This document shows, one piece after another, positions 634 to 28,684 of a DNA stretch of 64,000 bases. Position 1 is the stretch's first letter, and the number at the start of each line of letters is the position of its first letter. The position numbers and the translations under genes were made by a program. Source of the stretch: an uncultured Archaeoglobales archaeon (GTDB lineage: Archaea > Halobacteriota > Archaeoglobi > Archaeoglobales > Archaeoglobaceae); assembly GCA_965613355.1 (NCBI GenBank), contig CBFDVJ010000001.1, forward strand, positions 22,688 through 86,687. Direction: 5' to 3'. Under the pieces are notes generated by a model, which saw nothing but the letters and a program-made list of their open reading frames with translations, did no database searches and was not told the origin of the DNA.

Positions 634-1866
634 TAGGGTCCTTACCAAATCACATCTCAGCCAACCTTTGTAACTCCTTCTTTTCTCTAAAGCCCATAGC
701 AACAACCACGCCAACCAGAAGGACATTCAAAGCTGCAAATTTTAACACAGATCTCCTCGTATAGCGGTGCAATCTTCTCAATCCGAAGGATTTAGCGAGT
801 TTAAACACATCCTCAATGGCAGATCTAACAGCCTTGAACTCACCCCATCTCTGCAGCAAATTCAAAAGCTTGGATTTTAAAGCCTTAAATCTCCTCTTCT
901 CCTCCTTCAGCTTTGAACTGAAAATGCTGAGGGGGTAGCTCAGCATTCCATTTAATCTTTCAACGTCAAAGTTGCTTCGAGGAAAGATCAGAGGAACGAT
1001 TCTGTACTCATTAATCCCGATTAAATAGTTCCCGTAAGCATAAAAACCCTTGTCCATGATGATGACATCTCCTTTCCTGATCATCTTTCTCCTCCTAAGC
1101 TCTTCCATTATTTCCTGGAATATCCTAGCCTCATGCCTGTTCGCTGGATGTAAAAGAAAGAGAAGAGGCTTGATGGAAGGATGCTCCAAGACCAAAGTCA
1201 GTTTCATACCAATAAACATCCCCTTCGAAGAATATCCCCATCTGTATTCTTTCCCTCTAAATCTCTCTGTTTTATTGGTTTCCTGAACAGTTCAAATCGA
1301 CGCTTACATCCGTGCAATCTATGATTACTCTGGTGTTTCTTGCTCTCCTCTTCGTTATTGAGTTTAGAATTCTTAAAACCATGTTTACAAAGTCGTTAAG
1401 GCTGAACTTTGAAAGGAAGGAATAAACGTAACTTGTTTTGGGTATTTCTTTGTCTATTCCCATATAACTCTCTCAGCTCTTCTCTCTGCTTTAATTCGCT
1501 GACAACGTGGCTGATTCTCGTTGAGAAGAACATGGAAGTTGTAACGAGCTTTAAAATCGAGATTGCTTTTAGGCTAGTGTACCTCGCAATTATCTTCTTT
1601 ACCTTCCTTAAATCGAAAACCTTAAGTATTTTCTTAAGCAATTCCCATCTGTAGTCGCTTTGGCAGACTACGAGCGGTATATGCATTTAAACCACCAGAG
1701 GAGGCTTATGCCTCCTCCTACATAAGTTTTTCGGTTTTATGTTGCTTTGTTTCCTTTGAAGAGAAGCTTGGTTATGTCTCTTTTAGTGGGAAGGTTGAAT
1801 TGCTTGTTGTTTGTAGATTGGATGGGTTAGAGAAGAGATTTGGTTCAAGGTTGTGTAAGCACCCTA
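634..1866 (-). mobile_element. Insertion sequence (~1233 bp), DDE transposase of IS4/IS5-like type, inactive
   Basis: Terminal inverted repeats TAGGGTCCTTAC (634-645) and GTAAGCACCCTA (1855-1866) match 11/12. AATTTAA flanks both ends (627-633, 1867-1873). Encloses transposase fragments. Confidence 0.8.
650..1686 (-). pseudogene. Frameshifted DDE transposase
   Basis: ORFs 1396-1686, 1272-1463 and 650-1219 join into one protein with DDE-like motifs (IIDCTD, IMDKGFYA, RSAIEDVFK). Frameshifts near 1465, 1290 and 1252. Confidence 0.85.
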
Positions 1867-4923: not shown

Positions 4924-5469
4924 CTACTCTCCAGCCAACCGATCGTAAATAAGTCTGCCATTGACAATTCTTGCTTCCTTCGAGATTTTATGCTCAACCT
5001 TCCGATCGTTAAGGATGTGAATGACTTTCCATCCTTTCATAGCCAGGTAATCCGAGATAAACTTCCTATGACACCTCCAATAAAGCTTTTCGGCGCACAT
5101 TATGGCAGAGGGTCTCAAAACTGCGATTTCTTGAAGTTCTTCGATCGCCGTTTTGAATTCTTCGGTAAGCATGTAGTCAGCGTAATTCCTGAAGCCCTCA
5201 CTTTTTATTGCCTTGTTGGGAGAATCATCCATTATCTTCTTCCTGTAACCCCCTAAAGTGGGAAACCAGTAATACTCGATTCCCGATTCTGAAAGAATCT
5301 GCCTGAGATACTCCCCTTTGAAGTGGGGAAATTTCGAGGTTGGAAACCTCCTAACATCTATCAGGATTTCAATCTCGTTTCTGATAAGCAGTTCAACAAA
5401 TTCCTCTGCCTTTCTGTTGGAGTGGCCGATCGTGAATATTCTTTTTATTTCTTTTCCCTCTGCCTCCAT
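4924..5469 (-). CDS. DUF488 family protein
   Basis: IFTIGHSNR, LIDVRRFPTS, LGGYR and IMCAEKLYWRCHRKFISD are DUF488 signatures. Confidence 0.9.
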   Translation of the reverse strand: MEAEGKEIKRIFTIGHSNRKAEEFVELLIRNEIEILIDVRRFPTSKFPHFKGEYLRQILSESGIEYYWFPTLGGYRKKIMDDSPNKAIKSEGFRNYADYMLTEEFKTAIEELQEIAVLRPSAIMCAEKLYWRCHRKFISDYLAMKGWKVIHILNDRKVEHKISKEARIVNGRLIYDRLAGE

Positions 5470-5529: not shown

Positions 5530-6843
5530 TTATCTTGTTCTTCTCAAGGGTATTGCCACTAACATCACCAATGCCACTAAAATTCCCGTCAGAGCGGTGA
5601 GAGATTCAAAACCCGGAATCCTCGGAACTGATTCCGGTTGCTCAGTGGATGTTGAGATTGGAGTTGGAGTTGTTGGAGTTGGAGTTTGCAGGACTGGCTT
5701 TTCTGGTTGGATACTTTTTGCTGCTAAGACATAGATTCCGCTTTTATTAGACATAAAACTTAAAGCAATTTCAGAATCACTTGTATTGTAGTAATCAGAC
5801 GTCCTTTCAATTGTTTCCTCACCTAACCGATAAAAGGCAAGGGTTGATACATTAATTTGCTTGGATAATTCTTTAATTTCTTCATCGGATAGATTTGATT
5901 CCATATAAATGTACCCGGCCTCGGTATAGACATCAGGTATTACCGTTGCATATATCGAATCGCTAAGCATGACCAATCCTTCAGGCAACGAATTCAATCT
6001 CACGATTGACAACTGAAATTCCTCGCCAGAAACGTTGAGGTTTTTAAGAGAATAGAGAGATCCATGAGATGCCTGATCTCGGATAAAAACTCCCTTCTCT
6101 GCGATACTCCCAGAAACTATGAATCCGTATTCGGAAAAAGTGGAAAGAAACGCACTATCTTCGCTATCTTCTCCATCTCCTCTATCTTCTCTTCCTACAA
6201 ACACTACATCTTTTACTCTATTTGCCATACCACCGGAAAGCTTAACACCTTTCTGAAATCCTTGGAGGATGAGGTTGGAGAGCAAGATTTTTCTTGAGGC
6301 CGAAACTTCAATTCCCACTTCATCTCCCTCCAGAAAGCTGTCCTTGAGCTTTATAGAGGTGGAATGTTCCACCGTTACACCTACTGCACATCCTTTGATT
6401 TCCAACCTTTGAAGGGTAATATTCATACTTTCGGTTATCTTTATGGCTTCCATATTGTCTTGGAAGACGCAGTTCTTAACATCCAAATCACCAGAATATA
6501 AAATCTCCAGCCCCGTTGATCCGTTGATGATGCGCATACCTTCAATCACAACATTCGGCGTAGAGATAACCTGAATTGTAGGAAGCAATCGGATTTTAGG
6601 CTCAAGAGTTGTTTTCTCACCTCCTACAATATTTACAGACTTTTCTATCTTCAAATTCTCACGATAAGTTCCCGGAGCTATCAAAATCGTATCTCCCTCT
6701 TTCGAGGCGTTGATTGCATCCTGAATGTTGGAAAAATCACATTCCTCGCACACTTGAATTGCGTTTGCGTTAGCAGATGACGCTAACAGAGCAAGTACGA
6801 GAAGTATAGAGAATATCACTAGGGCTTTTTTTAAAGATCCCAT
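5530..6843 (-). CDS. Cell-surface protein: signal peptide, NosD/CASH-type beta-helix, beta-sandwich, Thr/Pro linker, PGF-CTERM sorting signal
   Basis: Hydrophobic N-terminus; SNIQDAINASKEGDTILIAPGTYRENL helix cap; C-terminus IPGFESLTALTGILVALVMLVAIPLRRTR (PGF + TM + basic tail). Confidence 0.85.
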   Translation of the reverse strand: MGSLKKALVIFSILLVLALLASSANANAIQVCEECDFSNIQDAINASKEGDTILIAPGTYRENLKIEKSVNIVGGEKTTLEPKIRLLPTIQVISTPNVVIEGMRIINGSTGLEILYSGDLDVKNCVFQDNMEAIKITESMNITLQRLEIKGCAVGVTVEHSTSIKLKDSFLEGDEVGIEVSASRKILLSNLILQGFQKGVKLSGGMANRVKDVVFVGREDRGDGEDSEDSAFLSTFSEYGFIVSGSIAEKGVFIRDQASHGSLYSLKNLNVSGEEFQLSIVRLNSLPEGLVMLSDSIYATVIPDVYTEAGYIYMESNLSDEEIKELSKQINVSTLAFYRLGEETIERTSDYYNTSDSEIALSFMSNKSGIYVLAAKSIQPEKPVLQTPTPTTPTPISTSTEQPESVPRIPGFESLTALTGILVALVMLVAIPLRRTR

Positions 6844-9800
6844 TACCTTTTCACCACCTTGATCTCAATATGACCGCTTATCTCCTGTCTCACGGATTTG
6901 GAGTTACTTCTCGAACTGCATGAGTAAGAGCGAGTGGAGGAGAAGTCTCTACTGCTTTCATGATGATAATCTCCCACAACCTCCTGCCATCTATCTTTAC
7001 CTGTTTTTTTGAGAATTAGGAGACCTGGTTTCACTTCGTAGTAGGGTACGGAGACTCTCTGCTTCTCAGCATAACCGGGATAAGAGCAACTAGCACCATC
7101 TCGAGGATTTGTTCCTGTATCACCATCATAAATGCAAACGTCGACAAAAGTGCTCGTTCCTTCTCCGAGAGATGAAGTAGAAACGTCTGTTTCAGTTCCT
7201 TTCATCAAAAATACTGGCCACTGAATGGGATCTATTGCCAACACCAAGTCTCCGTTACTAGTCTCCCACAAGAGCCAAGTTCTTTCATTGGAGACTCTCG
7301 ATGAAAGGGAAGTATCCTCTACCTTCACATGGCTACTCCCAGAGATACCACTGTTGCCACTGCAGCCATCGGTGTAACTTCCGCTATGAGTTCTAGAGTA
7401 GCTACTCTGGTATTTGTAAGCGTAACTGGCTGTAATTCTCTCTTTTCCTGTGCTTTCCTTCCAGTAAGTTTTTGATGTGAAGTGGATGGAAGAACGTGCA
7501 GACATCGTCCACTCCGCATCAGACGAGCCTGAATCCGCTGAATTGTAACATTCCTCCCCTATAGGACAGCAGAGATGCGGACAGTTCGATGTGGCAGAGG
7601 TTGTTCCGGATTCCTGATATAGAGAATTTCTTGTCCACGTGATGAACAGGACGAACTCTTTTTCCTTAACCTCGATGAAAGCCTCATCCCTCGGAGCTTC
7701 TGTATATCCAAGTCCTTGATATACTGCTGGTATCTTTACCAAACCTTCTTTCTTGCCTGCAACGAATTTAATTGTCGCTCTACCATTTTCACCGGTTATC
7801 GGGTTGTTGTGAGCATCAATAATGCCTAAAGGGAATACCTTTCCATCTAACAAAGCAAACTTCTCTATCAAGATCATCTTGTCAGCTAGGGGTGTCCTCT
7901 TACCGCCCAGCTCCTCTTTGTAGACGAAAATATGCAAGAGTGTTTGTTGTTTTGGTAGTAATTCGTCCTTCTCGGGCTTTATCTCAATTCCAATTCCTGC
8001 TATCTTAACCATCGCTAATCTGTGGATTTTCTTGCCACCTCTCGCCTTTGCAAACACTTCTATCTTATCCACACCAGCTCTAACGCCTTTGGATTGCATG
8101 AGGAAGTATTCTGCCTTAGCGACTCCTAAAGCGTCGGTTGTCGAGAAAACGTAACCGTAATCGCCCTTCCCCTCCGCTTTAACATAACCTCGATCGGTGA
8201 CCTCTTTGAAGTAAACCTTCGCTCCTTCGATAGCTTTACCTCTGCAGTCCCTTACAACTGCTTTGATTACCACTTTATCCTTTCCTTCCTCGAATGTGAG
8301 AGTTTCAGGATTAAGTGTTAAAAGCAAAGAGGGATCTCTTGGCGGTTTAGGATTGTTAACCTCCCACGTTTCGATGATCGATTTCAAATCACCCTGTGAG
8401 TTAATCAGATCATTTAAAATTGAGATATCATCACCTCTAGCTGTAACACCACTCACCCTAACGACATTATCTACATCGAGAAGCACAAGATTCATCAGGT
8501 TCGTGTCTCCAAGCATAACGTAGTTGAATCGAAGGATGTATTCTGCATTAACCATCTGTCGAATTCTTGATAGATCTGCTTCATCAGGATTCTCGGCCAA
8601 GAAATTCTCTTGCTCGAGCAGAGCACTCTTCACATCAACATCACTCGTTATAATCACTCCCGGAGACTTCGCCTGAATAAGCTCCTTAACCTTAATTGAG
8701 AAATATCTTTTGAGGGTTTCGGGAGTGTCGCCGGGATAGGTTTGCAGCAATTTTTCAACCGCCTCATCTCCCAGTTCTACAAAGAGGTATACTTTTGGTT
8801 TTGAACATCCCTCTTCCCCTTGGAACAAATCTGCATTTAGTATGCAGTTTCCTTCGCTTTCACTTAAGTTTAAGACTGAAGTGCCCTGAAGGTTAAGGCT
8901 AAAGGATGTTACACCGATGTCAGCAAGATCAATCTCTCCTGTGTAGCGAAGTGGGAGATTTCTTGTCCTATTTTCGCATCCAAGAGCTAGTTTAACCATA
9001 GGGATGTAGTATATCTTTCCATCGCTCGTATAGGCTTCGCCAGCAAGATAGTATTTACTTGGAGAAGCTGTTATTGAATAACCAAAGTGGTTTCCTTTAA
9101 ATTCAAACTCATTAGTTTCGAGGGTATAGGAGTCAATAAGTCTTATTCTGCTTAGGACGAAGGGAGAGGTGTCGTTGTCCGTTGCATTTCTTAGATACGT
9201 TCCTTTTATTGTTGATATGCCACAAACCTCAAATGTCTGGATGTCCTCTGCAACCAGCACCCCATCATCGTTGAAAAGGTTGCTTCTTAGGATGTAAGTG
9301 CCCTCTTTCCAATTACTGTTTATAAATTCTTCAAAAGCTATGAAGTAATCAGATTCTATGGGTTTGTATCGCTTACCTTCAGCCTTTTCAGAGAGCGTTG
9401 GTAGATGTACGACATTGCTTTCGGGATCCTCCATTGATGACAAAAGTGTCCCGTTTTGAGTTGAGTTTCCCGTGAGCATGTGTTCTATTATGACTTCCTG
9501 TCCATTGCTGAAGATTTCTCTGTTTATGTAGAGCTTTACTGAGGTTTGATTATTGTAGTAAAGCTTGTCCGTGGAGAGTGAGACCGTATTGAATCCATCT
9601 GCTAATCCATCTGCTAATCCATCTGCTATCTTGCCAACCAAAATGTAGGTTCCTGCTGAAAAGCTGTTGTTGAATTTAATCGAAGATGGCAAACGCCCAT
9701 AGTAGTTCGTTCTTAAGTAGTATGAATCTATCGGTTTTTTGGTTTCACTCCAGTCTGGATAGTAGAGTTTTTTGCCATCCGGGGTTAGAAGGTAGATGTA

Positions 9801-12800
9801 TGCTTTGTAATCTTTGCTTCCATTTCCGTTGATGATTCCGTCTATCTTTAGGTAAGTTGTCATGGTTTCGTTTTCAGAAATGGAGTTGTCTGAGGTGAAT
9901 GCCTTTATCTGTGGGAAGCTGAAGGGGAGTGATGGAATTAGGGAGACATTTTTGATTTCCCACTGCCTTGTTCCTCTATCCCATGCATTCTCCGAGACGA
10001 ATGAAATTATGTTTTCCACATCTGGAGTGATGTTTTCCAAGATAGGAATTTCGTAGGTTTGGTAATTTGAATTTAGTTGGATGGTTGTAACAAGGTTTCC
10101 CGAAAGGTTGTTATAGCTCTGGATTCCGTTTCTATGGAATTTGTTGAGGTAGATGTCTATTTTACCTCCACCCTTTGCTTCAAAGGTCAAGGTATAATCC
10201 GTTTTCCTTCCAAAGAAGGAGAAGGCCACGTCATCTGTAAACGAGGTCATAGTTGTGTTCAATTTAAGCAATTCACCTAAGGTGAGAGGTATTATTTTGA
10301 ACTTTACCTCTCCATTTCCTTTTATTGCATAGTAATCCTCTCCATTGACCATTATTCTGTGCTCTCCAAGAGATAACCTTTCGATTTCTACAGTTCCTGC
10401 GGTTGCATAAGGCTTCAATGAGATGGCAGTAGGTGAGGAATTATCTACGATATAGGAAGCTCTTCTCAAAGGATATTGAGAGGTAAAGGCTAGGGTTAGG
10501 GATCTTTCGGTATAGGATTTGCTTTTAGGAGTGATTTCAATGCTAAACTGGGGTTCTTTAACCTCCTCTAAAACTGGGATTCCTCCAGCCCCTGTTCCAG
10601 CGGTTCCTCCACCTCCAGTAGTCCCAGAAATAACGTTTATTGAGAAGTTAACTACCGTGAAGTTGAGATTTCCGGCCGTATCGTTTACGTAGACAATTAA
10701 CGTGTAATCTCCGTTTGATAAACCTGTTATCGTTGTGTTTGGAGTGAAGGTTACGTTTGACGCCGAGTTTAAAGAGTACCACCATCCGTCTATATCTGGA
10801 TCGGGTGAGTGAACTTTTAGATAAACGTAGTTCGCTGAATAGGTCTTGCCTTCTTCAGGTGAAATTACACCGATGAATGGAGCTGTATAGTCTGGGGTGA
10901 CGTTTGTGAGGGGTAGATAGTCACCGCCAGCTATGTTTCCGCTTGAGTTGTAGGGCAGAAGCGTATCTCCTAAACCATCTCCTCCAGCCGTGTCAGCTCC
11001 CGTATAATCATGCCAGTAGTTCCCTCCCAAATATGAGCCATTGATTATGTTCGTGCCTGGAGTTTTCGAGATGTTCCAGAAGTTGTTGCCGTTATCGTAG
11101 GCGTTTATGGAGTTGTTGAAGTAGTTATTGTAGATTAGGTTGCTGTTTGAGGAAGAGAGGTAGATTCCGTATCTCTGACCTCCAATCCAGATTCCTTGCT
11201 GCGGGTTCGCTAGGCGAAGGATGTGATTCGTTTGAATCGTGTTCGAATTTGAGTTTGAAAAGTGGAATCCATATCCGCCCTGGCATGGATTGGTTGTTGG
11301 AGGGAGATAGAAGCTCGGCCCATTGTCCGTTATGTTTGAATCTAGAATCGTGTTGTCGCTAGATTCGTCGAGTTTTATTCCGTAGCACCAGTTCTTTTCC
11401 ACCTTGGTGTTTTCGATGGTAGTATTTTCAGATCCCCCGAGATACAAGCCTGAACCGTAATTGGAGTTGCCATTATCAGAGAAATCTGAGTTAGTGATTG
11501 TGACATTGCTGGAATAGTAAATCGCCAGTCCTGTAAGGTAATTGGTAAAAGCGTTTGTTGAATCAATGGTAGAATCAGAAGTGTTGTAAAGGATTATCCC
11601 ATGTGAGTTTGAGAATAAGCCGATGTTTCTGACTATCACATTTTTGCAGTTAATGCAAGCGAAAAATCCTATCGGTGGTTGAGCAGATTGGTCGAATATT
11701 GCATTAGAGGCGTTTTTGATGTAGTAAATTGCACCACCGCTGACGTTGTTTGACGTATCTATGTCAAAATCGAAGTCCCGGAATTGGGGAGTAGTGTAAA
11801 CTTCCCCTGGGTCAAAATAGAAATCGTAGGTGTTACCGAGCATTCTATTCTCTCTGAGCGTTAAGTTGGTTGAATAGGTGTAAGGAGATGATGAGTCGAT
11901 TTTGATTCCCGCATACTTGAATTTTACAGTGTTGTTGTAGATTAGGCAGTCGCTCGCATGGTTTATTTTTATTCCTGCATCTTCATCTTGGACAGGTGTA
12001 TCCCCTACAATCAGGTTGTTTTGTATAACGCAGCCTCCCGAGTCAAACCTTATCCCTCCATAGCCCGAGAATGTGTTGTTGGAAACAGTATTTCCCTCAG
12101 CATATCTCTTTATCCACACTGCCGGCATAGAAGATGTAAAATTCTTCACGAATGTGTTGTCATAGATCAAATTGTTACCAGCGTTTCTATAACTCAAACC
12201 TTCAATTGTTATGTAGCTGTTGTAAGTTCCCTCTGCAAAAGTATTGAGAGTTATGTTGTTGTAACTTGAACCCTCAATTCGGAGTTGAGATGCTATGAAG
12301 GTGTTCTCTGCTATCAGATTTCTATCTGAACCATGTAGATAGCCCTTTACGAGGAATATTCCGCTTCCATTGAATGTATTGTTCCTTATGATGTTATCTG
12401 TCGACTCATGATCGGTTATCTGGATACAACTCATACCGGAAACCAGATAGGTTGTATATCCCACCTTTATACCAGCCTCAGGTATTGAGCCGAGAGGGCA
12501 TGGGCCAGGATAGGCTGAATTGTTGATGTAGAAACCTTGAACAACGTTACCATTGGAGGCGAGGGTGAAACCACTACCTTTCTGGTTGGCATCTATGACG
12601 GGATTACCAATCCCCGTTATGTTCAGGGTTTTATTTACAAAAACGTTCTCAACGTAGGTTCCATTACAAACGATAATCGTGTCTCCATCCATCGAAACAT
12701 TTACAGCATCCTGAACTTTAGTGAAATTTGCCGGGCAGTCAGCCAGATCATCATCAACATACCACGTTTTTGGATCTCTAAGGGTAGTGAAATTTCTGAT

Positions 12801-14030
12801 TGAGCTGTTGGAGTAAAGGCTTGTGTTGTCTGCCTTATACGAGAAAGCTGAGTAGTAGTAGGTTGTGTTTGGAGATAAACCGGATAAAGTTATGGAAGGA
12901 TTCTGCGTGTAGTTATCCCAATCTCGCTCAGGATACATAGTTTCGCCGCCAGATAGGATTACAGACTCATTCATATAGAGAGTCTGGGTATTGTTATCCC
13001 ATTCAGACCATTCCGGTGACGATAGATCACTATTGAGGCTGTAGAGAACCCTGTTAGCTGATAAAACATTCGTATACCAGCTAATTGTTATGCTGGTATT
13101 CGTTAGATCGCTCTCCTGGATGTTGCTTATGACCGGAGGTTGTTCTGTCTCGAAAAGCATCGGATAGTAATCTAAAGGCAAATTCGAACTTTCACCTTCA
13201 CCACACCAGAGGGTGGAGACCTGATATGGCATATCACCGATTCCATCGTTGTTTGAATCGATTCCTGAATAATCATCCCAGTAGTTGCCGGTGTAATTCG
13301 AGTAAACATCGCCTTGGTAGCTGTACTGCCTTATTTCAGTCGAGTTCCAATTGTTATCCCCGCAATCGATCGCGTTGTAGGTGTTGTTGATAAACCGATT
13401 GAGGTAGAAAACGTTTGTAGAAAAATCAGCCTGAATGCCGGTATCGCTATCCCTTATCGTGTTGTTGTATATCGTGTTGTTGTAAACGGCGTTGGTATTG
13501 GCGTAGAATTCAATTCCAACAGTGGTGTTATGGATCGTGTTATCGAAAATCACAGCATAGCCCGAATCTTCAAGCTGAATACCATCGTAGGTATTGTAAA
13601 TTACATTGTTTGAGATATTGGCATGATCGGAAGGATTCAGCGAGGCGGGATTTGGTTCTACATCAATCCCATCATCATTGCTTTTCGTTGAGCCACCGGT
13701 GATAGTAAATCCAGATATGGTAACATAACTTGCATGAACCTCAATAACATCCTCGCTCGTGTCGTTTGCTTGGATAATCGTATCCATTGGATTCTGAGAG
13801 AACGATTTGAGCGTTACCGAGATGTTGATATCAATATTCTCCAAATATGTTCCACTGCAAACGACGATCGTGTCTCCATCGCTAGCATTTTTCAAGGCTG
13901 ATGTGATAGTTGGAAAGTAAACATCCCCAGATGTACATGGAGTTGTTTTATTGACTACAAGAACAGCATCAGCACTAGCTGACAGCATTACCACTACACA
14001 GACTATTAGAACTACTTTTACGACATTCAT
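6843..14030 (-). CDS. 2395 aa secreted multidomain protein: two NosD-type beta-helices, FN3-like, Ig-like domains, CsgG/TolB_N-like alpha/beta domain, invasin-type Ig domains, Cys-rich C-terminus; no C-terminal anchor
   Basis: Signal peptide ending SADA; repeated beta-helix coils with GNYW-D-D-G caps; ITISWYTN...LSGLSPNTTYYY FN3 motif; TTDALGVAKAEY and TGENGRATIKF Big_1-like motifs. Confidence 0.85.
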   Translation of the reverse strand: MNVVKVVLIVCVVVMLSASADAVLVVNKTTPCTSGDVYFPTITSALKNASDGDTIVVCSGTYLENIDINISVTLKSFSQNPMDTIIQANDTSEDVIEVHASYVTISGFTITGGSTKSNDDGIDVEPNPASLNPSDHANISNNVIYNTYDGIQLEDSGYAVIFDNTIHNTTVGIEFYANTNAVYNNTIYNNTIRDSDTGIQADFSTNVFYLNRFINNTYNAIDCGDNNWNSTEIRQYSYQGDVYSNYTGNYWDDYSGIDSNNDGIGDMPYQVSTLWCGEGESSNLPLDYYPMLFETEQPPVISNIQESDLTNTSITISWYTNVLSANRVLYSLNSDLSSPEWSEWDNNTQTLYMNESVILSGGETMYPERDWDNYTQNPSITLSGLSPNTTYYYSAFSYKADNTSLYSNSSIRNFTTLRDPKTWYVDDDLADCPANFTKVQDAVNVSMDGDTIIVCNGTYVENVFVNKTLNITGIGNPVIDANQKGSGFTLASNGNVVQGFYINNSAYPGPCPLGSIPEAGIKVGYTTYLVSGMSCIQITDHESTDNIIRNNTFNGSGIFLVKGYLHGSDRNLIAENTFIASQLRIEGSSYNNITLNTFAEGTYNSYITIEGLSYRNAGNNLIYDNTFVKNFTSSMPAVWIKRYAEGNTVSNNTFSGYGGIRFDSGGCVIQNNLIVGDTPVQDEDAGIKINHASDCLIYNNTVKFKYAGIKIDSSSPYTYSTNLTLRENRMLGNTYDFYFDPGEVYTTPQFRDFDFDIDTSNNVSGGAIYYIKNASNAIFDQSAQPPIGFFACINCKNVIVRNIGLFSNSHGIILYNTSDSTIDSTNAFTNYLTGLAIYYSSNVTITNSDFSDNGNSNYGSGLYLGGSENTTIENTKVEKNWCYGIKLDESSDNTILDSNITDNGPSFYLPPTTNPCQGGYGFHFSNSNSNTIQTNHILRLANPQQGIWIGGQRYGIYLSSSNSNLIYNNYFNNSINAYDNGNNFWNISKTPGTNIINGSYLGGNYWHDYTGADTAGGDGLGDTLLPYNSSGNIAGGDYLPLTNVTPDYTAPFIGVISPEEGKTYSANYVYLKVHSPDPDIDGWWYSLNSASNVTFTPNTTITGLSNGDYTLIVYVNDTAGNLNFTVVNFSINVISGTTGGGGTAGTGAGGIPVLEEVKEPQFSIEITPKSKSYTERSLTLAFTSQYPLRRASYIVDNSSPTAISLKPYATAGTVEIERLSLGEHRIMVNGEDYYAIKGNGEVKFKIIPLTLGELLKLNTTMTSFTDDVAFSFFGRKTDYTLTFEAKGGGKIDIYLNKFHRNGIQSYNNLSGNLVTTIQLNSNYQTYEIPILENITPDVENIISFVSENAWDRGTRQWEIKNVSLIPSLPFSFPQIKAFTSDNSISENETMTTYLKIDGIINGNGSKDYKAYIYLLTPDGKKLYYPDWSETKKPIDSYYLRTNYYGRLPSSIKFNNSFSAGTYILVGKIADGLADGLADGFNTVSLSTDKLYYNNQTSVKLYINREIFSNGQEVIIEHMLTGNSTQNGTLLSSMEDPESNVVHLPTLSEKAEGKRYKPIESDYFIAFEEFINSNWKEGTYILRSNLFNDDGVLVAEDIQTFEVCGISTIKGTYLRNATDNDTSPFVLSRIRLIDSYTLETNEFEFKGNHFGYSITASPSKYYLAGEAYTSDGKIYYIPMVKLALGCENRTRNLPLRYTGEIDLADIGVTSFSLNLQGTSVLNLSESEGNCILNADLFQGEEGCSKPKVYLFVELGDEAVEKLLQTYPGDTPETLKRYFSIKVKELIQAKSPGVIITSDVDVKSALLEQENFLAENPDEADLSRIRQMVNAEYILRFNYVMLGDTNLMNLVLLDVDNVVRVSGVTARGDDISILNDLINSQGDLKSIIETWEVNNPKPPRDPSLLLTLNPETLTFEEGKDKVVIKAVVRDCRGKAIEGAKVYFKEVTDRGYVKAEGKGDYGYVFSTTDALGVAKAEYFLMQSKGVRAGVDKIEVFAKARGGKKIHRLAMVKIAGIGIEIKPEKDELLPKQQTLLHIFVYKEELGGKRTPLADKMILIEKFALLDGKVFPLGIIDAHNNPITGENGRATIKFVAGKKEGLVKIPAVYQGLGYTEAPRDEAFIEVKEKEFVLFITWTRNSLYQESGTTSATSNCPHLCCPIGEECYNSADSGSSDAEWTMSARSSIHFTSKTYWKESTGKERITASYAYKYQSSYSRTHSGSYTDGCSGNSGISGSSHVKVEDTSLSSRVSNERTWLLWETSNGDLVLAIDPIQWPVFLMKGTETDVSTSSLGEGTSTFVDVCIYDGDTGTNPRDGASCSYPGYAEKQRVSVPYYEVKPGLLILKKTGKDRWQEVVGDYHHESSRDFSSTRSYSCSSRSNSKSVRQEISGHIEIKVVKR
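9592..9627. repeat. In-frame 12 bp tandem repeat x3 (AATCCATCTGCT)
   Basis: Three exact copies, encoding ADGLADGLADG. Confidence 0.95.
13233..13289. repeat. 57 bp exact repeat, copy 1 (copy 2 at 26062-26118)
   Basis: Direct comparison shows identical sequence; encodes [19 protein letters not shown] in both giant genes. Confidence 0.95.
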
Positions 14031-14083
14031 TAATTAACCTTCCTCCTTTACGAATTTCTTCGATGAATCAGACTTTGTTTGAA

Positions 14084-14174
14084 AGTAGAATAGACTAGGT
14101 TGTCTGGTAAGAACAATTCTTTAGAGGAAATTTAAATTTTTCGTTGTAAATTTTATTTTAATAATTATTATTAG
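14084..14174 (-). promoter_or_regulatory. Duplicated promoter/leader upstream of the 2395 aa gene
   Basis: 76/91 identical, ungapped, to 28594-28684. On the minus strand it contains CGAAAAATTTAAAT (BRE/TATA-like). Confidence 0.8.
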
Positions 14175-14229
14175 CTGATGAATAACCCAACGAGGGTTAC
14201 GGCAAAATATGTTTTATCTTAAACAACCT

Positions 14230-14345
14230 TCATATTTCAAACCTAACATTCTGCTCTCCAACCAAAAGATTGTAAATTAGCTTGCCGTCTAGTGTATCCA
14301 GTTCCAGCCTCAGTGGCCGATCGTGTATATTGTTTTTGTCTCCAT
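14230..14345 (-). pseudogene. Internally deleted DUF488 remnant
   Basis: ATG 14345 encodes METKTIYTIGH then stop (19/20 nt identity to 5421-5440). Out-of-frame LDGKLIYNLLVGE follows, matching the intact gene's terminal VNGRLIYDRLAGE. Confidence 0.85.
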
Positions 14346-14454
14346 TTAACTTATCCTTTGAATTAAAGGTATAACTTTGTTTTCGGTTTGCTATCTTTGA
14401 AAGATTCCAATGGGAGGGGAAAAACAATAAAAATTAAAAAGTTAAATAAAAAAT

Positions 14455-17400
14455 TTAGGCGCCACCCTTGCCTATTCTACCTTTGTAAGCTAAAACCGCA
14501 ATTAATATTGCAATGATGGCGATTATTGGCAAAGCGAGTTGCCAGAGCTGCAAAGGTTGCGGTGGAGTTGGTGTGGGTGTAGGCTTGGGTGTTGGGGTTG
14601 GTGTAGGTATTGAGATCGGAGATGGGACAGGAGATGGGGCCGGATATGGAGTAGGTATTTCAGATGGTGTCGGGGTTGGAGTTGGTGTAGGCTTGGGTGT
14701 TGGAGTTGGGAAGGGTGTGTAGTGTGGAACTCTTATCTGCGTAGGTACAGGAGTTGGCGTGGGCTGTTTCTTTATGCAAGCATCTCCTGGATAGGATTCA
14801 AACTGGCAGGCCTGGTAGTAATTCGTCTGGTAAGTATCTTCCCTCTCCTCCACAAGTGAGAGATCATTGTTGTATATTTTAAGATATGATAAGTAGTAAT
14901 TTCCGTTCTCCTCACTCTTTCCGATATCTTCTCCTCTGAATTCGAGAGTTATAAGTTGAGTTCCTGTATCAAGCGGCGCAGATTTATACAAATTGGTTAT
15001 GAAGCTCCCACCAAGGCTGCCGTAAATAATATAATCTCCTTCCTGCTCGACATTCAATTTCAGCTTAACAACTAAGTAATCGTACAATCCGTTGTTATCT
15101 GTGTCCAAGCCATAATCTTCCACAACCTCTAAAAGATGTACCGGCTTGCCCTGGAAATCTGAGGAGTTGTAAGAGGCTGTGGTTGTGTCCTCTGCCTTCC
15201 CTATCAAACCCGGATTGTGAGAGTAGAGTTTAACTCCAACCACATCGTAAGGCCCGTCTTCACAACTGTTCCTAATCTCAATTCCGCTGAAATTCAAATA
15301 GACAATCTGATTTCCTGAATCTAAATGCATAGTGTTAGATGTGTGTGTTATCCTCTGGTTGCCTTTATAGAGAGACCCAGTTATCGTATAATCGCCCGCT
15401 TTAGAGAGGTTTACTGAGAATCCTATCCCGAGATAATCTATTAACCTATCGTTATTGGAGTCGACCGTTTCCTCGCTCACCTTAATCATTCGTGTAACTA
15501 CGTTTTTGGGGTGCGGGAAAACAGCGACATTGTTTGTTTCACCAATCTCTTCAATCGTGTTGTTATAGTCAGCAACAACAAAGAAAATGTATTTTCCTGC
15601 TGGAAGGATTGCGTTAAACGTGACGTCAGCGGATTGATTCGGTGAGATGGAATACAGACTTGTTTTATCAATTATGGCACTCTCGTTGATAACAGAGGTT
15701 CCATTAACAACCGTATACGGATTGTTCTTAAACAACGCCACCTCAACATTCTCCGCAATTACACTTCCTACGTTCCTCACTTTAACATCTATTGTCGCAT
15801 TATCGCCGAAATCACTTGAAACAGAGATTTCTTCCCCTCTGACTTCCAGATCTGGGCCAATAAGCACAGGAATTAATTCATGGTTGTTCGTTTCATCTCC
15901 TTCAGCAATCTCGTTGTTTTCATCGAGCATAAGATGAATATAGTAGTAACCAGCTGGAAGCCCACTAACATCCCATACCGCTGTGAGATCTTCAGTTTCG
16001 GAAATTTCGAGGCTCCTAACTGTTTGAGAGTCTATAAGCACCTTATCCTTGTTGAAGAAAGGAGAAGTACTGTAATAGAAATTAACAGTTGATTCATTCG
16101 CCTTGTAATGCCCGCGATTGATTACTGTTGTTGTAATTGAGATTTTATCGAACTCGTATAGAATATGCATAATTCTATGGGCCAAGTCTGGCATGAGGAT
16201 AGGCTTAGAGGCTATGTTGTTGGTTTCATTCCCCTCTGCTATACTATCGAGCGGATCTATCTCCACATAGATAATATGTTGTCTTCCATCAGATGGAACT
16301 GTCCAGTTTAAAGTCACCTCCTTGGTTTCACTACCTCTAATGAAATCTATTATTTTCGTTCTAATTATCCTTCCATTATCGGTGAACCTCACAAGCACAT
16401 TGTCCAAGGCTAGATCTCCAACATTGTGTACTTTTACAGCTATCGTTATGTCCTTGCCCGGTTCTGGTGTACTTGAGAAACCAATATCTCCACCATCAAT
16501 CTCCAAATCGACGATGATCTTATGCTTCAAAAGATAAATGCTCGCATTCTCAAACTTCGTAGTAGTTACATTGAAGGTCTCATTACCAGCGGTTACAGTT
16601 TCGTTCTGCAGTTTGATCTCCTTTTTAATATAAACATTCAGGATCTCATTCTTAGAGTTGATTATGGGAGAGAAGCTCTGTTCAAGGTCGAAATCATTCG
16701 TTAAGGTGTTGCTCATGCTCCAGCTGTCATGCGCTTTATCAAAAACAGAATAAAATATGTTCAAATCGCCATCCATGCGTGATTGCCATAGGATGACAGG
16801 GTTGTTTGCCGGATTCCTAGCGATCTCCAATCCTTCAACCTTTCCCTCCACGGTTATCGACTCTGGCTCTGACCAGCTTCCATCGTAAATTGCATACAGA
16901 ATTACATTCTCAGTTTTGTTCTCAGTTGAATTGTCCTTCACCCAAACAAGCATAATTTTATCGCCAAAATAAAGCACGTCAGGAAGTCTGTCTTCCCTTC
17001 CATCGTTCGTGAATCTTGCCTTTGCAGACCAACCCGTTCCATCGAAAATTGAGTAGAATACTTCTTTATCAGAAATCGTGGATGAGTTGCCATCCATATC
17101 CTCTGTCCATACCGCAATCGCTGAATTGTTGTGGAAATCGAAATTGAGGTTGTCCGTTAGCCTTAAATCTGAGAATGCTTTCTTTTCCGGAGAGAAGGCT
17201 GTTCCATTCCATATGCTGTAGTAGTAGTCGTTTTCAAGGGGGTGATTTTCTGTTGCATTATTTCCGATGTAAACCTCATTCCTCGGATTCTTAATCCACA
17301 TTACCATCGCTTCATAACCATCGGCAACAATCTTCGGCTCATAGTCGAAGTATGAATCATTCGTGAGTAAGGCTGGAGTTGTCCAGTATCCAGAAGAATA

Positions 17401-20400
17401 AAGTGAGTAAGCGATCTCTGCATGCTTTATAACCTCACTGAAGTTGCCCGGATTTTCCGGCAAGCTTTCATTATTCAACTTCGTCCAAACTGCTATGAAT
17501 CGATTGTCTAAGGTGTATGCAAGATCAGGCTTGAAATCAGATGTGGTGTCATTGACAATTGGTTTCGGCTCGCTCCATCCACCGCTTTCGTTAAAGGTGT
17601 AATATATGTCGAATGCCCGAGTTAGATTCTTAGATGGATTATCAGCTGAATAAACAATCATCTCCTCGTTATCAATCCCGAGGGCAAGCTTCGGGTCGGC
17701 ATCAGGATATGTGTTTTTCACGATAATGTATTCCTGAGTGGGGGAACTGTGGATTAACTCTCCAGCCAGAGTATTGTACTCTGCAGTTAGATAATCTCTA
17801 TCAGAAAGTCTCCAGTACTCCGGTTTCGAAGCTGGTTCAGTCCAGCAATTTCCATTCCAAAGATCGCATATAAACTTTCTGCCCCAGTGATCTGAGTAGA
17901 ACAAGAAGTGCCAATCCACCCTTATCAAGACTCCGGCGCGAAGGGAAGTGATTGAGAAGTCGTAATTCCTATCAAGCTCAGCACCCATTCCAACGTTCGC
18001 TCCTACCGTAACCTCAACACTTGCTATGACAACACTGGCACCACCACTAGCTTCACCCCAAATATCCACGTCAGCGGTTGCATTGTAGAACTTCAGTTCA
18101 CCGCTCTCCGTCCTTTGCACAATTCCAAAGCTCACTCTTACATCCATTGTTACCCCAGCCTTAATGACCACAAAATCCCATTCAGTCAGGGGGATATCCT
18201 GAACGTCAACGATCAGATTCCAGTCAACTTCATCCAAGTATAAAGTATTACTAGAGGGTTTGTATATTGCAATTCTTTGAGCGCAGATTCCGGCAAGGGT
18301 TTGCTCTCCAAAGGTGTAATAAATTCCTCCACCATAACTCATTCTCCCCCTTCCTGTAAAAGAGCTGAATGTAGCGTTTTCTTCAAAGAAGATTCCACAT
18401 GCTCCTGGATTTGAGCAGAACGTACCCTCCTGTGGCGTATGTTTGCCGGATGGTATGTAAGTAGTTACACCGTAATGCCCGCCTACCCATGGTACTCCTG
18501 AAGGAACATCAAAGCCTGGTATTTTGTCAATAACCTCCATGATCGGCTCGATTATACCGATAATATCCAAGGCAGAGTCTGTAATTTTTGTTACGTCTAT
18601 AATCACATCCGTAACCACCAACACCGTATGAACTCCAGTCAAAACATCTCCAACTTCATCAATAACATCTTTAACATCATCTGGAAGCGGAATATCGCCT
18701 CTATATTCAATACCAGAGCCATTGAAATAGCAGATGTAAGCTTTATTATCTTTATAAAATACAACATCACCCCTCGATTTATCGTAGGAGACACCTACAC
18801 CCTGATATACAAATCTGAGTAAACTATCCTTATATGCCGCTGAAAGGGATATGGATCCGTCGTCATAATTGAAGGAGACCTCGTAATCAGACGTGTTGAA
18901 GCTCGCTTCTATATCAACTCCATCGCTGTAGTTAAAGCCGACTTCACCTTTATCATACTCTGCTTCAATTTCGATTTCACCGCTATATCTTATGCTTCCA
19001 GCGTAATCATCCAAATCGATAGAGACTCCCACATCAGGTGTGTCCAGTGAGAGCCTGTGTGCATCAAAATCCCAATAGAAAGTATAACCACTATATACAA
19101 ATTCCACATGATCCTCAAATACGTAGATTTTGGTTACCTTTTTCAGATCGACGTAGTTCTGGCCCTCAATGTACTTCTCACCTCTGACAACTTGCGGAAA
19201 CCTCGGCAAGCCTTTTGGCTGGAGTCTGTGAAAGAGTGTCTCAGCTTTAACTGTCGTCGTTTGTTCAGAAACCGCCTCAATCAAAAACATGCTAGCTCCA
19301 AGAGGCAAGTCTTCCATGTTGAATCCTTCATGGGTCGTTTGAGTGTATTTATACGAGGGATCATCAGGATAGTAATACCAAACACATTCCGGATCGGGAT
19401 GTCCCTGAATGCAGAACTTCTTCGTTATCGCTTCTTGAGTTGGAGGCGTTACTGATACCCTCAGTGGATCTAGTTCTCCATCCCATCCAACGCTAACCTC
19501 CAATCCATTTTCAATACCGTATCCTTTCAAGAAGTACTTAGTGTACATCGGATTTATTTCGAGAATATCCGGATACCTTGCAAGGCTGTTAAAGGTTCTG
19601 TGAGTTCTCACTGCTCTTTCTGAATAGGGGTCATTCGTCTCAGCCTGTATAGTTGCATTTCCAACTTGATTGAATGCATAGTCAAAGATTGCAGTTCCAT
19701 TCTCATTTGTGAATGCAATCGGTGGGAAGATCACTCCGTTTTCCTCCTCTGAAATCTCGGAGAAGTTAACTTGCATACTTGAAACTGAGATCGGATTTCC
19801 GTTGCAGTCAGTTATTTGAGCAAAGCCTACGAGGTGTTGGTTTTCATACGATATTGCTCCCATCTCGAGTCCAAAGCAAGTGAGAGGAGGTGAGGTGAGA
19901 GGATACATGTCCTGATTATTTCCTCCGGTTATGTTATAGGGACTATCGCATATTCCATTGTTGTCCGAATCATAACATCCCTCAGAGGGTTCATCGTAAT
20001 CACTCCAGTAATTGCCTCTTGAGTCATTGTACCAAAGGTAGAGGGATCTTCCGTCATCCAATGCCGAATATTCGTTATTTAAGAAGCTATTGTTCTCAAC
20101 CACTATAGATTCCATAGCTTCAGCTGGAAGTAAAGCTGCTGTATGGTTAAGCCTAACTCCTCTATAATTCTCATTTAGAATGTTCTGAGAAATGTTAACA
20201 AAAGTGCAGTCCACCAGACTTATACCTGCATCGCTGTACGAGGCTGTATTTTTGATAATTTTGTTGAAATTGGAGTTTTTCATATGAATTGCATCGTTTT
20301 TACAGTTTATTACACTATTATCCTCAATTGTGTTGCCATCGGAGTGATTGAGATAAATCCCATGGCTTGTAGCATTGAAGAGGTAGTTACCCTTAACTAA

Positions 20401-23400
20401 ATTGTCTCTGGATTCGTTCAACCAGATAAGATACCATCCCTGGACGATGTTGTTGTTTGTGATGGTTGTATTTGTAACTTCATCGAGCAGCGTTATTCCA
20501 GCTTCTTTGTTGTAGAGAAGGTTGTTTTCAGTTATGTTGTTGTAATCTGATGAGAAAATGGCAATGCCGTAATAGCTGCCAAATACGGAATTGTTCATTA
20601 TAAGGTTGTTGTTTGCTTGATAGTCAACATATATTCCCGCCCCTGAGCTTGGATACAATTCGTTGTTTCTGATAACGTTGTTCCGCGATTCCAAGACTGA
20701 GATGCCCGCATATGACGAGTTGACCAAATAATTATCCTCTATCACACTATTCATAGAATAATCGAATATGATACCAGTTTGGAGATAATTGCCTATTCTA
20801 TTATTCCTAACTCTAACCTCATCGGAATTGGAAACATTTATTCCATGCCCAGATGATGAGAGTTCGTTTTCTTCTACCGTAATGTTCTCAGAGTTGAGGA
20901 TTGTTACAATATTCCCCCCATATCTTGCAGAGAAATTGTTTCTTAAAATCAGTGAGTTCTTGATATTGCTTAGATAAAGCCCACGATAGGAATACATTGG
21001 AGAGATGTTATTTGAAGCTATAAGGACCGAGTCACCTCCCGAAATATATATTCCTGTTACTACAGTATCTCCTACGATGGTGTTGTTCGTAATGAGGCTA
21101 TCACTTAATCCACTAAACTCAATTGCGACATAAAATGTTGTATTAAAGTAATTCTCACTTATGACGTTTCCAGTGTTATATGTTTCTATTCCTATCGACA
21201 GACCCCATCCTTGGGATAAGAACCGGTTATTTGAGATATTGGAATTGTAAAGATAACCTGTGCGTATCCCATAACCGTTGTCTCTAAAAATGCAGTTGGA
21301 GATTTCGATATTATCCATGACTCCCCAGTATCCGAATATACCGTCAGTTGATGCGCCCTCTATCGTAATTCCAGTTATGTTTACTTTGTTTCTCAAAGAA
21401 AATACCTTATCACCCATAGCATGAACAATCGTATCGACTGGATTTCTCGAGAAGGATGCGATTTTCTCCAAATTCTTGTCTATTGTGACACTCTCATTGT
21501 ATTGCCCTGGACAGATGATAATCGAGTCTCCGCTGTTTGCAGCATCTACAGCTTCACTTATTGTATGATGATGGGTAATACCCTTAACACAAATACCTCT
21601 GTCCGGCTTGTAAACCACCCTTATCGGCTTGTTTGTCCCCATTATGGCATAAGTTCCACTGGAATTTTGAAGATCAACGTGTGTGAAGACGGCCTTATCA
21701 GCGGGATAAACAACATTTGGCCAGGAGTTAACGGGAAGTCTCCAGTTTCCATCCACGAAGTTGTAGAGTGCTAGAGTATCTTCAATAACCGAAGTTATAT
21801 CTCTGTCTTCATAACTCAAAGTTAAATCAAGATATCCACCCTCACACACCGGATTGAGTTCCAGATAGACTCCAATATTTTGAATGTACTCAAGGCTGTC
21901 CAGAATGGGTTCTGCCTCAGCTATAGCATAGCAGTTTCCAACAAAACTAGCTTTAATATCATTTAGAGATACATTCCAGAAGAGTTCCCTTGATAAACTC
22001 TGAATTGAGACAAAATCCGATGCGTTAAGATGAATCGTTGTGAAGGCATTATCTTCAGTATTTTTGAGCTTTATACCTACCTTCGAGTCAATAACATTAA
22101 TGTTCTCGAATTCATTATGAGAACTATTCTGGACTTTGATGCCCGTATTGGAGTTTGCTATCTCTACATCTCCAAATTCATTGTAATTCGAGGAGGTAAG
22201 ATTAATCGCATCGAAGGTGTCGGAGGAAGCAATATTATGGAAATCACAATTAAAAGAATTTTCGAGGTTGATCGAGCTGTATTCGTGCGTGGACTCCAGA
22301 TCTGACACCGATTGTCTCAAACTACCATTAACATATATCCCGTTTTTATTTCCAGAAGTCCTTATAGTTGAAAAAGAACTCTCATACCCGCCGATATCCT
22401 TAATCCCATACACGTTGTTCTCAGAGGTAAGATCGTAAACATTAGCGAAGGAGACATCATACAAAAACAGCCCTGAGCCTCCCTTTGAGTTATTTGAGAG
22501 TACAAGATTTCTCAGTGTGACTTGAGTAGAGTTAATTATCGTTATTTTTCCGAGATTACTAACATTTTCAGCCACGAGGGTACGGTTTGCTATCCAAATA
22601 TTCTTCGCATTTACATAATGGAGATATGGTTCTCCGTTAACAGTATTTCCAATTATATCATTGTAATAGCTCTCGATCCCATTGAAGAAGATTCCCGACC
22701 CCATAGGATTAATTATTGAGTTGGAGATCAAAGTAAAGGTATTTTTAACGTTGCTGGAGAGTCTTATTCCATTCTCCTGGGGATTAATAATAGTGTTATT
22801 CGCGATCAGTAAATGTCCTGGGGATGTGTCTTTGGATGTTAAAGATTTTACCGCTATGGCTATTCCGTTGTCTGAGAATGTGTTATTATCGATCACATTA
22901 CCTACGCTAACAGAAGGATATCCAAAATAATAGTAGATGCCGTAGGTTGAGTGGAGAATCTCATTATTACTTATCAAATTTCCTGTGCTTGGTTCAATAA
23001 AAGCGATTGCTTCAATCCCCTTTTCGGATGTATCTATCAGATTGTCCAAGATTGTTATATTCTTAGATATATACAGGGAAATACCCTTGCTCGAGAGTTC
23101 AATAACATTATTGCTTATAGTGATGTTGTTGCATTCCTGTTTAAAGAAAACGGGAGGTGAGAGATCAATCCCGATTTTGTGATGATAGAGTGAATTTCCA
23201 TCGATGATGCTGTCCGTCACATTGACGAAAGTTATCCCATAGCGATATCCAGTGAAGGGTGTGAATGGAGTGAACCCTCCAATTCCTCCCGAGCCTTCAG
23301 AATTCAATGCATTATCCCAATCAAGGGTATTATTTCTAATTACAATGTTAGTGGCATCCTCAACAAAAATGATTCTTTCAGTTCCTCCATAGAACTTGAA

Positions 23401-28374: not shown

Positions 28375-28378
28375 GTTA

Positions 28379-28561
28379 TCAACTCCTACCATTCCGATAG
28401 GTTAACAAACCGTTAAACACAGCATTTGGTTTAATTGCTCGGTTTGCTAGATGATTATTCAGCTCAGTACACCCCGAATTAGGAAAAGAGAACAATTCAA
28501 GGACTACAAGAGTATAGAGTTCACTCTCTCGAGGCTCCATGCCACTAATACAAGGAGACAT
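28379..28561 (-). CDS. Possible 60 aa upstream ORF or gene remnant in the leader of the giant gene
   Basis: GGGGGT SD before ATG 28561; stop is 4 nt before ATG 28374; no recognisable motif. Confidence 0.35.
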
Positions 28562-28593
28562 TTTACCCCCTTTTAATCAGGCGTTGTTATCAG

Positions 28594-28684
28594 AGTAGAA
28601 TAGACTAGGTTGCCTGATAAGAAAAGTCAACAATTAAAAATTTAAATTTTTCGTTGTAAATTTTATCTTGATAATTATTATTAG
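28594..28684 (-). promoter_or_regulatory. Duplicated promoter/leader upstream of the 4645 aa gene
   Basis: 76/91 identical to 14084-14174, with the same BRE/TATA-like core. Confidence 0.8.

Follow-up and report, generated by a model that had tools for sequence, protein, structure and literature searches.

A repeated promoter and leader region, probably a shared module, precedes two giant surface-protein genes in an Archaeoglobaceae genome and coincides with a strain polymorphism

Two ~110-base control regions (copies A and B), each positioned 5' of a giant surface-protein gene on the minus strand, were identified in a window of 64,000 nucleotides (the whole stretch of DNA analysed here) from the 2.3-Mb draft genome (42% G+C) of an uncultured Archaeoglobales archaeon. 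The two repeats are probably copies of a single promoter-plus-leader module belonging to a giant beta-helix surface-protein operon present in a group of Archaeoglobaceae. According to this reading, a 31-nt AT-rich element would provide an activator-binding site or a contact surface for basal factors, and would be followed by a consensus BRE/TATA and a 21-nt stretch that is free in sequence and fixed in length, with transcription expected to start at 14105-14108 (copy A) and 28615-28618 (copy B). The first bases of the long 5' leader would pair with a partner ~28 nt downstream, generating a 7-bp stem around AGUCUAUUCU ahead of the ribosome-binding site, and the leader may shield the 5' terminus of an mRNA of 7-14 kb or bind a protein that controls translation. 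The existence of two copies would be due to a 14.5-kb unit carrying gene B, bounded by the module (5') and by a DUF488 remnant (3'); homologous recombination in a 29-nt identical promoter tract would add or remove this unit, and some strains would therefore carry one giant gene with a hybrid promoter and others two. The genes and associated signals of the locus are as follows.

6843-14030, minus strand: gene A, encoding a 2395-aa NosD/Beta_helix surface protein (Pfam)
14028-14047, minus strand: Shine-Dalgarno sequence AGGAGG (14042-14047) and ATG (14028-14030) of gene A (sequence)
14213-14360, minus strand: DUF488 remnant, 5' and 3' ends only, at the 3' end of the 14.5-kb unit (alignment to 4924-5469)
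14416-14457, minus strand: stop codon of gene B plus oligo-T runs of T6, T5, T5 and T5, together probably an archaeal terminator (sequence)
14455-28392, minus strand: gene B, encoding a 4645-aa NosD/Beta_helix/CARDB surface protein (Pfam)
28379-28561, minus strand: short ORF of 60 codons in the leader-to-gene-B interval, its ATG following the AGGGGGT of the leader (no Pfam family)
28709-29275, minus strand: gene for an Lrp/AsnC-type regulator, adjoining copy B on its upstream side (Pfam)

Genes A and B are arranged head to tail. The N-terminus of the gene A product reads as a signal peptide, and this product is 55% identical over 600 aa to that of the giant gene of a sister species (G004, Archaeoglobus sp. 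GB_MAG3_049); the true start of gene B is likely to be the ATG at 28374, which lies behind GTAGGAG. Apart from generic beta-helix repeats, the first 600 aa encoded by the two genes (12231-14030 versus 26575-28374) are unrelated (BLASTP E=0.13). An 81-nt patch common to both genes at 91% identity (13224-13304 versus 26053-26133) suggests local gene conversion between them. Archaeal transcription terminates at oligo-T, and gene A needs its own promoter because the oligo-T runs behind gene B separate the two transcription units. An intact DUF488 gene (4924-5469) follows the gene A operon; the remnant matches this gene and its flanks at 24/26 and 52/63 positions, with 13 gap columns. The upstream regions of other giant genes in the genome were found to be unrelated to the module.

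Realignment reproduced the extent of the repeat as reported in a first-pass annotation of this DNA: positions 14084-14174 and 28594-28684 (minus strand) are identical at 76/91 positions without gaps, and homology continues for ~18 nt toward the genes, to 14066 and 28576, with one indel. Within this stretch, an upstream block (block U; 14128-14174 versus 28638-28684) is identical at 45/47 positions and a downstream block (block D; 14084-14113 versus 28594-28623) at 28/30, both at a single common offset of 14,510 bp, while the intervening spacer (14114-14127 versus 28624-28637) retains 3/14. The mismatches, described earlier as packed downstream of the TATA box, indeed fall inside one 14-nt window in 11 of 15 cases (0/200,000 permutations were as clustered), and the near-invariance claimed for the AT-rich block and for a downstream AG(A/G)CAACCTAGTCTATTCTACT was likewise recovered, with the motif present as described. 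When compared with an in-genome control, the DUF488 remnant (85% identity), blocks U plus D are more similar (95%; p=0.0085), a similarity that gene conversion between copies A and B could inflate, and the spacer is diverged far beyond this neutral control (p=1.5e-7), so that divergence is non-uniform. A blastn search of the whole 2.3-Mb assembly with block U returned the second copy (E=1e-15) and no third one. The parts of the two copies are listed below.

14144-14174, minus strand: AT-rich upstream element of copy A, 31 nt, beginning with CTAATAATAATTATT and ending with TTTACAA (29/31 versus copy B)
14130-14143, minus strand: BRE plus TATA box of copy A, CGAAAAATTTAAAT (genome-wide enrichment, spacing calibration)
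14109-14129, minus strand: gap of 21 nt between TATA box and predicted start in copy A, core 14114-14127 fully diverged (3/14 versus copy B)
14067-14108, minus strand: predicted leader stem-loop of copy A, 5' arm ACCAGAC 14102-14108, loop 14074-14101, 3' arm GTCTGAT 14067-14073 (RNAalifold, pair counts, covariance model)
28654-28684, minus strand: AT-rich upstream element of copy B, 31 nt (30/31 versus G004)
28638-28666, minus strand: 29-nt tract identical in both copies (14128-14156 in copy A), the crossover lying inside (three assemblies)
28640-28653, minus strand: BRE plus TATA box of copy B, CGAAAAATTTAAAT (genome-wide enrichment)
28619-28639, minus strand: gap of 21 nt between TATA box and predicted start in copy B, diverged core 28624-28637 (alignment)
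28576-28618, minus strand: predicted leader stem-loop of copy B, 5' arm ATCAGGC 28612-28618, 3' arm GCCTGAT 28576-28582 (minimum-energy fold at 37 °C)

The 14-mer CGAAAAATTTAAAT, located within the last 16 nt of block U, represents the consensus BRE/TATA of this genome: six exact copies (0.07 expected) and 17 copies with one mismatch (2.7 expected) were found genome-wide, corresponding to an ~85-fold enrichment, and a start codon lies ~25-75 nt past nearly all of them. At the repeats, the BRE is on the gene-distal side, with the Shine-Dalgarno site and ATG downstream. Spacing was calibrated on 95 sites matching a relaxed BRE/TATA pattern, taking the first ORF of 80 aa or more that follows each site; ORF ATGs showed a peak at +23/+24 after the 14-mer (16/56), which marks the start site because the genes concerned are leaderless. 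The peak is in agreement with genome-wide mapping in Thermococcus kodakarensis, which placed the transcription start ~23 bp from the TATA box (PMC4247193). Across the whole genome, a long ORF begins with an ATG 22-26 nt past ~40% of the strong-consensus BRE/TATA promoters, and leaderless mRNAs therefore seem to be common in the host organism.

In five homologous promoters, the first A of the 5' arm of the leader stem is situated at +22 to +24 after the BRE/TATA. As block D thus begins where the ATGs of leaderless genes are found, start sites are predicted at 14105-14108 and 28615-28618, within 3 nt of the positions guessed previously. The gap is 21-23 nt long in the same five promoters and its sequences are unrelated, which fits a spacer constrained in length and free in sequence; the first 11 nt of the copy B gap (TTTTAATTGTT) recur in G004. 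One way to read the difference between the A and B spacers is a 7-nt insertion with a compensating 7-nt deletion around a common AATTGTT. The architecture proposed in the first-pass annotation (AT-rich block, BRE/TATA, spacer of fixed length and free sequence, conserved transcribed leader) is largely borne out.

Block U is identical to its G004 counterpart at 46/47 positions, versus 77% for the adjacent Lrp coding DNA (binomial 9e-5 for all of U and 0.0036 for the 31 nt), and the edge of homology is abrupt, at CTAATAAT. Weaker versions of the 31-nt element were found in G002, G068, L065 and L069, the best-kept part being AAAATTTACAA, which abuts the BRE. From this pattern we conclude that the 31-nt element is under purifying selection, and it may act as an activator binding site or as an extended contact surface for basal factors. 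A lack of conservation in relatives had been put forward as a refutation of the first-pass reading; conservation was found both here and in the leader, which recurs before orthologous genes. Among other strong promoters of the genome, none was observed to carry an upstream region resembling the 31-nt element, which is confined to this locus. Copies A and B share a semi-palindrome, TTATY-AA-RATAA, with 9 bp between its end and the BRE; the dyad is not retained in G004, in G002 or in G068.

Matches to block U in other genera (G012, G015, G008 and G016) were rejected as instances of the same element, as what follows them is a C92 peptidase gene or a tiny ORF and not a beta-helix gene; they reflect a generic strong promoter with AT-rich upstream DNA. 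As a separate observation, a strong BRE/TATA with upstream AT-rich DNA leads to a conserved tiny ORF of ~19-21 codons in three other Archaeoglobaceae genera (L005:1501-1620; L007 ~1032-1078, minus strand; L008:1501-1600). The encoded peptides follow the pattern M-[ED]-x-KKK-x-EEVFKK-x-KI-[FY]-x-A-stop, for which a regex search of the host genome returned no match.

Block D contains the 5' part of a 7-bp stem, AYCRGRC/GYCUGRU, that encloses the AGUCUAUUCU loop motif and sits just upstream of the ribosome-binding site, its partner arm being located ~28 nt downstream. Within the loop, AGTCTATTCT (14087-14096 in copy A and 28597-28606 in copy B) is invariant, and AGUCUAUUCU is unchanged in five of eight homologues. 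RNAalifold independently selected this distal helix. Across the eight homologues, 96.4% of pair cells are standard-paired, versus 20-35% when the partner is slid, and two pairs are changed on both sides (5 cells: U-A to C-G, and G-C to A-U via G.U). The covariation score was reached by 5/500 shuffles, a test in which eight related sequences were used and in which relatedness alone can beat shuffles; because the leader sequences are related, the compensatory changes may represent two or three independent events only. G.U wobble pairs occur on the sense strand only (4/56 pair cells), and the stem of copy A has one C.A mismatch. These patterns provide moderate support for a conserved stem with compensatory changes in the leader. 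The first-pass annotation had suggested a pairing of AGRC with the adjacent GTCT; although such pairing is always possible, it shows no double changes, and the distal GYCUGRU, which is changed on both sides, is the better supported partner.

Single-sequence folds at 37 °C were no better than those of shuffled sequences (z ~0), and the stem helix has a dG of -0.6 to +2.1 kcal/mol at 75 °C, the optimum growth temperature as estimated from proteome composition, so that it is not predicted to be stable at growth temperature. A covariance model built from five copies recovered three more, namely a second G002 locus at the very start of its contig and the metagenomic orthologues L065 and L069, in each of which the leader copy precedes a giant beta-helix gene; the giant genes behind the further copies include paralogous as well as orthologous ones. 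The stem of L065 starts at +38, 15 nt farther from the TATA box, and that of L069 at +23 (manual count). No hit to the model was obtained upstream of the distant orthologues L072-L075 (41-52% protein identity); stems of 6-7 bp seen by eye at +23/+24 after the TATA box in L072 and L073 were post hoc, with a chance probability of ~0.04-0.1 each, and were not counted. A search of the whole window against Rfam 15 at the gathering score returned tRNA-Lys only and no leader family.

An extra GUCUGG arm is present in L065 (1100-1185), 10 nt upstream of the CCAGAC of its stem, so that this 5' arm could pair upstream or downstream, giving two alternative hairpins. At the second G002 locus (L061:1-61; G002:C41), the contig begins 16 nt before the leader copy, and an assembly break inside the promoter is expected there if block U is also repeated in G002.

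When 96 genomes of the class were surveyed, the leader pattern was found in four and a reversed control pattern in none; within the genus, it is present exactly in those genomes that carry a gene A orthologue. Stem arms and loop motif persist at orthologous loci with 52-62% protein identity, at which the spacer and the other loop bases change freely. Short ORFs comparable to that between leader and gene B were found in G002 and G068 (L034:4970-5050, L061:86-155 and L035 ~700-830). Conservation of both their DNA and their peptides is poor, and a conserved peptide behind the leader was rejected on these grounds; an exact-protein look-up of the 60-aa ORF returned no match. At both G002 loci, the short ORF stops in or just past a ribosome-binding site, GGAGGTG, which leaves 2-3 nt between its stop and a TTG start codon. 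The short ORFs of copy B, G002 and G068 could represent translational coupling or a relic. In G068 (L035/L026, G068:C309, ~1-700), a transposase-encoding insertion sequence that has terminal inverted repeats lies right behind the leader and short ORF; it separates the promoter from its gene, and the contig ends there.

We infer that the leader acts at the RNA level, either as 5'-end protection for an mRNA of 7-14 kb or as the binding site of a protein that controls translation. A search of the literature retrieved no description of a 5'-terminal stabilizing stem-loop for archaeal mRNAs. Two alternatives to this reading were considered.

The first is pure history, i.e. that the repeats simply mark the boundaries of a segmental duplication or cassette insertion of fairly recent date and have stayed alike through time and gene conversion, with block U and the leader having no special function beyond the BRE/TATA. 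Recombination between the copies demonstrably occurs (see below), genes A and B share the 81-nt patch at 91% identity, and the neutral control itself is still at 85%, which makes the 95% of U plus D moderately unusual and no more. A recent common origin does not, however, account for the retention of U at 46/47 positions in another species with 77% identity in flanking coding DNA and 55% in the giant-gene protein, for the persistence of stem arms and loop motif while the spacer and the remainder of the loop vary, or for a spacer diverged beyond neutral expectation. This explanation is considered unlikely.

The second alternative takes block D as DNA, with the inverted repeat AYCRGRC...GYCTGRT and AGTCTATTCT forming a putative start-site operator at which a repressor would block polymerase recruitment. 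The region downstream of +1 is the usual place of archaeal repressor sites, and many archaeal repressors block polymerase recruitment. The block covers +1 to ~+43, the unpaired AGTCTATTCT is conserved more than the stem, and the RNA stem has only marginal stability at 75 °C, all of which would suit a DNA site. Yet the half-sites are ~35 bp apart (centre to centre), which is unusual for a dimeric operator; the sense-strand G.U cells keep the RNA helix and break DNA symmetry; and symmetric double changes are expected of RNA pairing and not of a protein reading a fixed half-site. Such an operator therefore appears improbable, and the module with an RNA-level leader is retained as the preferred reading.

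The first-pass annotation had further suggested co-regulation of the two promoters, with a motif search for a regulon and binding assays with the neighbouring Lrp as checks. In the corresponding rival reading, the Lrp-type regulator would bind the AT-rich block and co-regulate both giant genes as its regulon. The Lrp gene adjoins the module upstream in the present genome, in G004 and in a strain with a single promoter; the TTATY-AA-RATAA dyad, 9 bp from the BRE, is near the position described for archaeal Lrp-type activators (PMC2995911); and the two A/B differences in U fall at symmetric dyad positions. Against this, the dyad is not retained in the three genomes named above, and scans with blastn, with the 14-mer, with the ATAATAATTA decamer and with the leader pattern returned only the two sites genome-wide, leaving no further members for a regulon. 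Among 15 Lrp homologue loci (Pfam), moreover, a TauE exporter gene is adjacent in six, a SLAC1-type channel in one, and the module follows in one. Elsewhere, the module is located behind four unrelated neighbours, i.e. an M20 peptidase gene (G002), a tRNA (G068), a tRNA synthetase gene (L065) and small ORFs (L069), and as there are five different upstream neighbours in total, it is tied to the giant gene and not to Lrp. Control by Lrp is thus very unlikely, and the Lrp gene is probably a neighbour and not part of the module.

Further observations concern the Lrp gene itself. The Lrp protein of the window had no match in an exact-protein look-up. A MAFFT alignment hinted at a vestige of the 3' end of Lrp ahead of copy A, which was rejected (local score 10 versus 8.4 +/- 1.4 for shuffles; 85/500). 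At five loci (L013, L015, L017, L018 and L022), a conserved intergenic motif, TTTAAACCAAAAGCCTTTAATA followed by ATTTAAAATCTAAAC, was observed just downstream of a Cys-tailed Lrp homologue, and the gene behind it is TauE in 3/5 loci; this motif is a better candidate for an Lrp target than the giant-gene promoter.

The 14,510-bp period spans promoter to promoter, and its 3' end contains the DUF488 remnant. In three independent assemblies (JGI, Logan and ENA) of a strain of the same species, Lrp is followed directly by a hybrid promoter and gene A, without the 14.5-kb gene-B unit; source samples include those behind SRR7051320, JGI 3300021472 and ERZ27248349. The hybrid promoter is B-type upstream of the 29-nt tract, with an A-type spacer and leader after it, and in one metagenome contig (L037) identity is 99.1% along gene A and its leader and 96.2% beyond that point, where the match is to the upstream part of copy B and Lrp. 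The three single-promoter assemblies represent two sequence variants, and their contigs may share one environment or overlapping read sets; the k141_ name of the ENA contig suggests k=141. These junctions place the crossover behind the presence/absence polymorphism of gene B in the repeated promoter. Insertion is slightly favoured over deletion as the direction of the event, given that G004 has the single arrangement.

A simple tandem gene duplication was considered and rejected: the flanks are homologous (95% for U and D, 85% for the DUF488 remnant), and the first 600 aa of the genes are not (E=0.13). Because these 600 aa cannot be aligned, the A/B arrangement is not the outcome of simple duplication plus drift: the ends of the unit are conserved and its cargo is different. 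The first-pass annotation missed that the copies bound a 14.5-kb unit which is absent in another strain. A further reading takes the direct 47-nt repeats as attachment sites at which a site-specific recombinase would move an integrated mobile element, as a unit between direct repeats with a clean junction within the repeat in the strain lacking it might suggest. This is extremely unlikely, since positions 14175-28637 contain no integrase or transposase ORF (only the giant gene, a short ORF and the DUF488 remnant) and since other species conserve the repeat, a working-type promoter, at loci with a single copy.

A bolder reading, which remains speculative and is rather doubted, is that the module is a portable expression and recombination handle of giant surface-protein genes. 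A dedicated factor would recognise the stem with its AGUCUAUUCU loop, or the AT block, and would be required for the synthesis or protection of 7-14 kb mRNAs at ~75 °C, the 47-nt block serving as the crossover site for unrelated cassettes. If true, cassettes would be gained, lost or exchanged between strains, resulting in cell-surface variation at the population level.

The distal GYCUGRU as a better pairing partner and the recombination role of the repeat are the new elements of this analysis. The module is lineage-restricted and made of known kinds of parts, and is for the latter reason useful rather than surprising. Documentation of cis-regulatory elements in archaeal mRNAs, other than BRE/TATA, is poor, and functional 5' leaders have little experimental backing in archaea (PMC4247193). 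The locus is a compact testable case in which three features come together: an upstream element more strongly conserved than the genes around it, compensatory changes in a leader stem located at the predicted 5' end of an mRNA of unusual length, and a natural strain polymorphism with a repeated promoter as the crossover through which a 4645-aa surface protein is gained or lost. An attractive and unsupported idea, that of Lrp control over the giant genes, is corrected as well.

Compared with known systems, the core promoter resembles that of T. kodakarensis (PMC4247193) in having a purine-rich BRE abutting an 8-bp TATA box upstream, an inferred start 22-24 nt away, a spacer of fixed length and free sequence, and a start codon with a Shine-Dalgarno site. 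The predicted leader, however, measures 77 nt in copy A and ~244 nt in copy B, versus a median of 16 nt in T. kodakarensis (PMC4247193), and most strong-consensus promoters of the host genome give rise to leaderless or short-leader mRNAs, unlike copies A and B. Archaeal upstream activating sites are known for Ptr2 and other Lrp-type regulators (PMC2995911), for GvpE (PMC2241852) and for EarA at the fla promoter (PMC5512572). As in these systems, a conserved, partly dyad AT-rich element is found a few bp upstream of the BRE of one operon; it differs from them in that the dyad varies across species, AAAATTTACAA directly abuts the BRE, and there is no second site or regulon.

Bacterial 5'-terminal stem-loops stabilise mRNAs against 5'-end-dependent decay (PMC3997798), and archaea possess 5'-3' exonucleases of the aCPSF2/RNase J type (PMC3792030). 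The predicted leader stem shares with such stabilising structures a position at, or no more than ~3 nt from, the predicted 5' terminus of a very long mRNA and an end just before the ribosome-binding site, and differs from them in consisting of 7 bp with a ~28-nt loop and in being marginal at 75 °C.

In the sap S-layer cassettes of Campylobacter fetus, the conserved 5' regions of a surface-protein gene family are recombination handles. The present locus differs in that each gene has its own promoter, the change is a gain or loss of a whole gene and not a promoter inversion, and no dedicated recombinase is evident. It is like the sap system in combining unrelated or diverged cargo genes with a common 5' control region, recombination at which, in C. 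fetus, alters the surface-protein repertoire of the strain.
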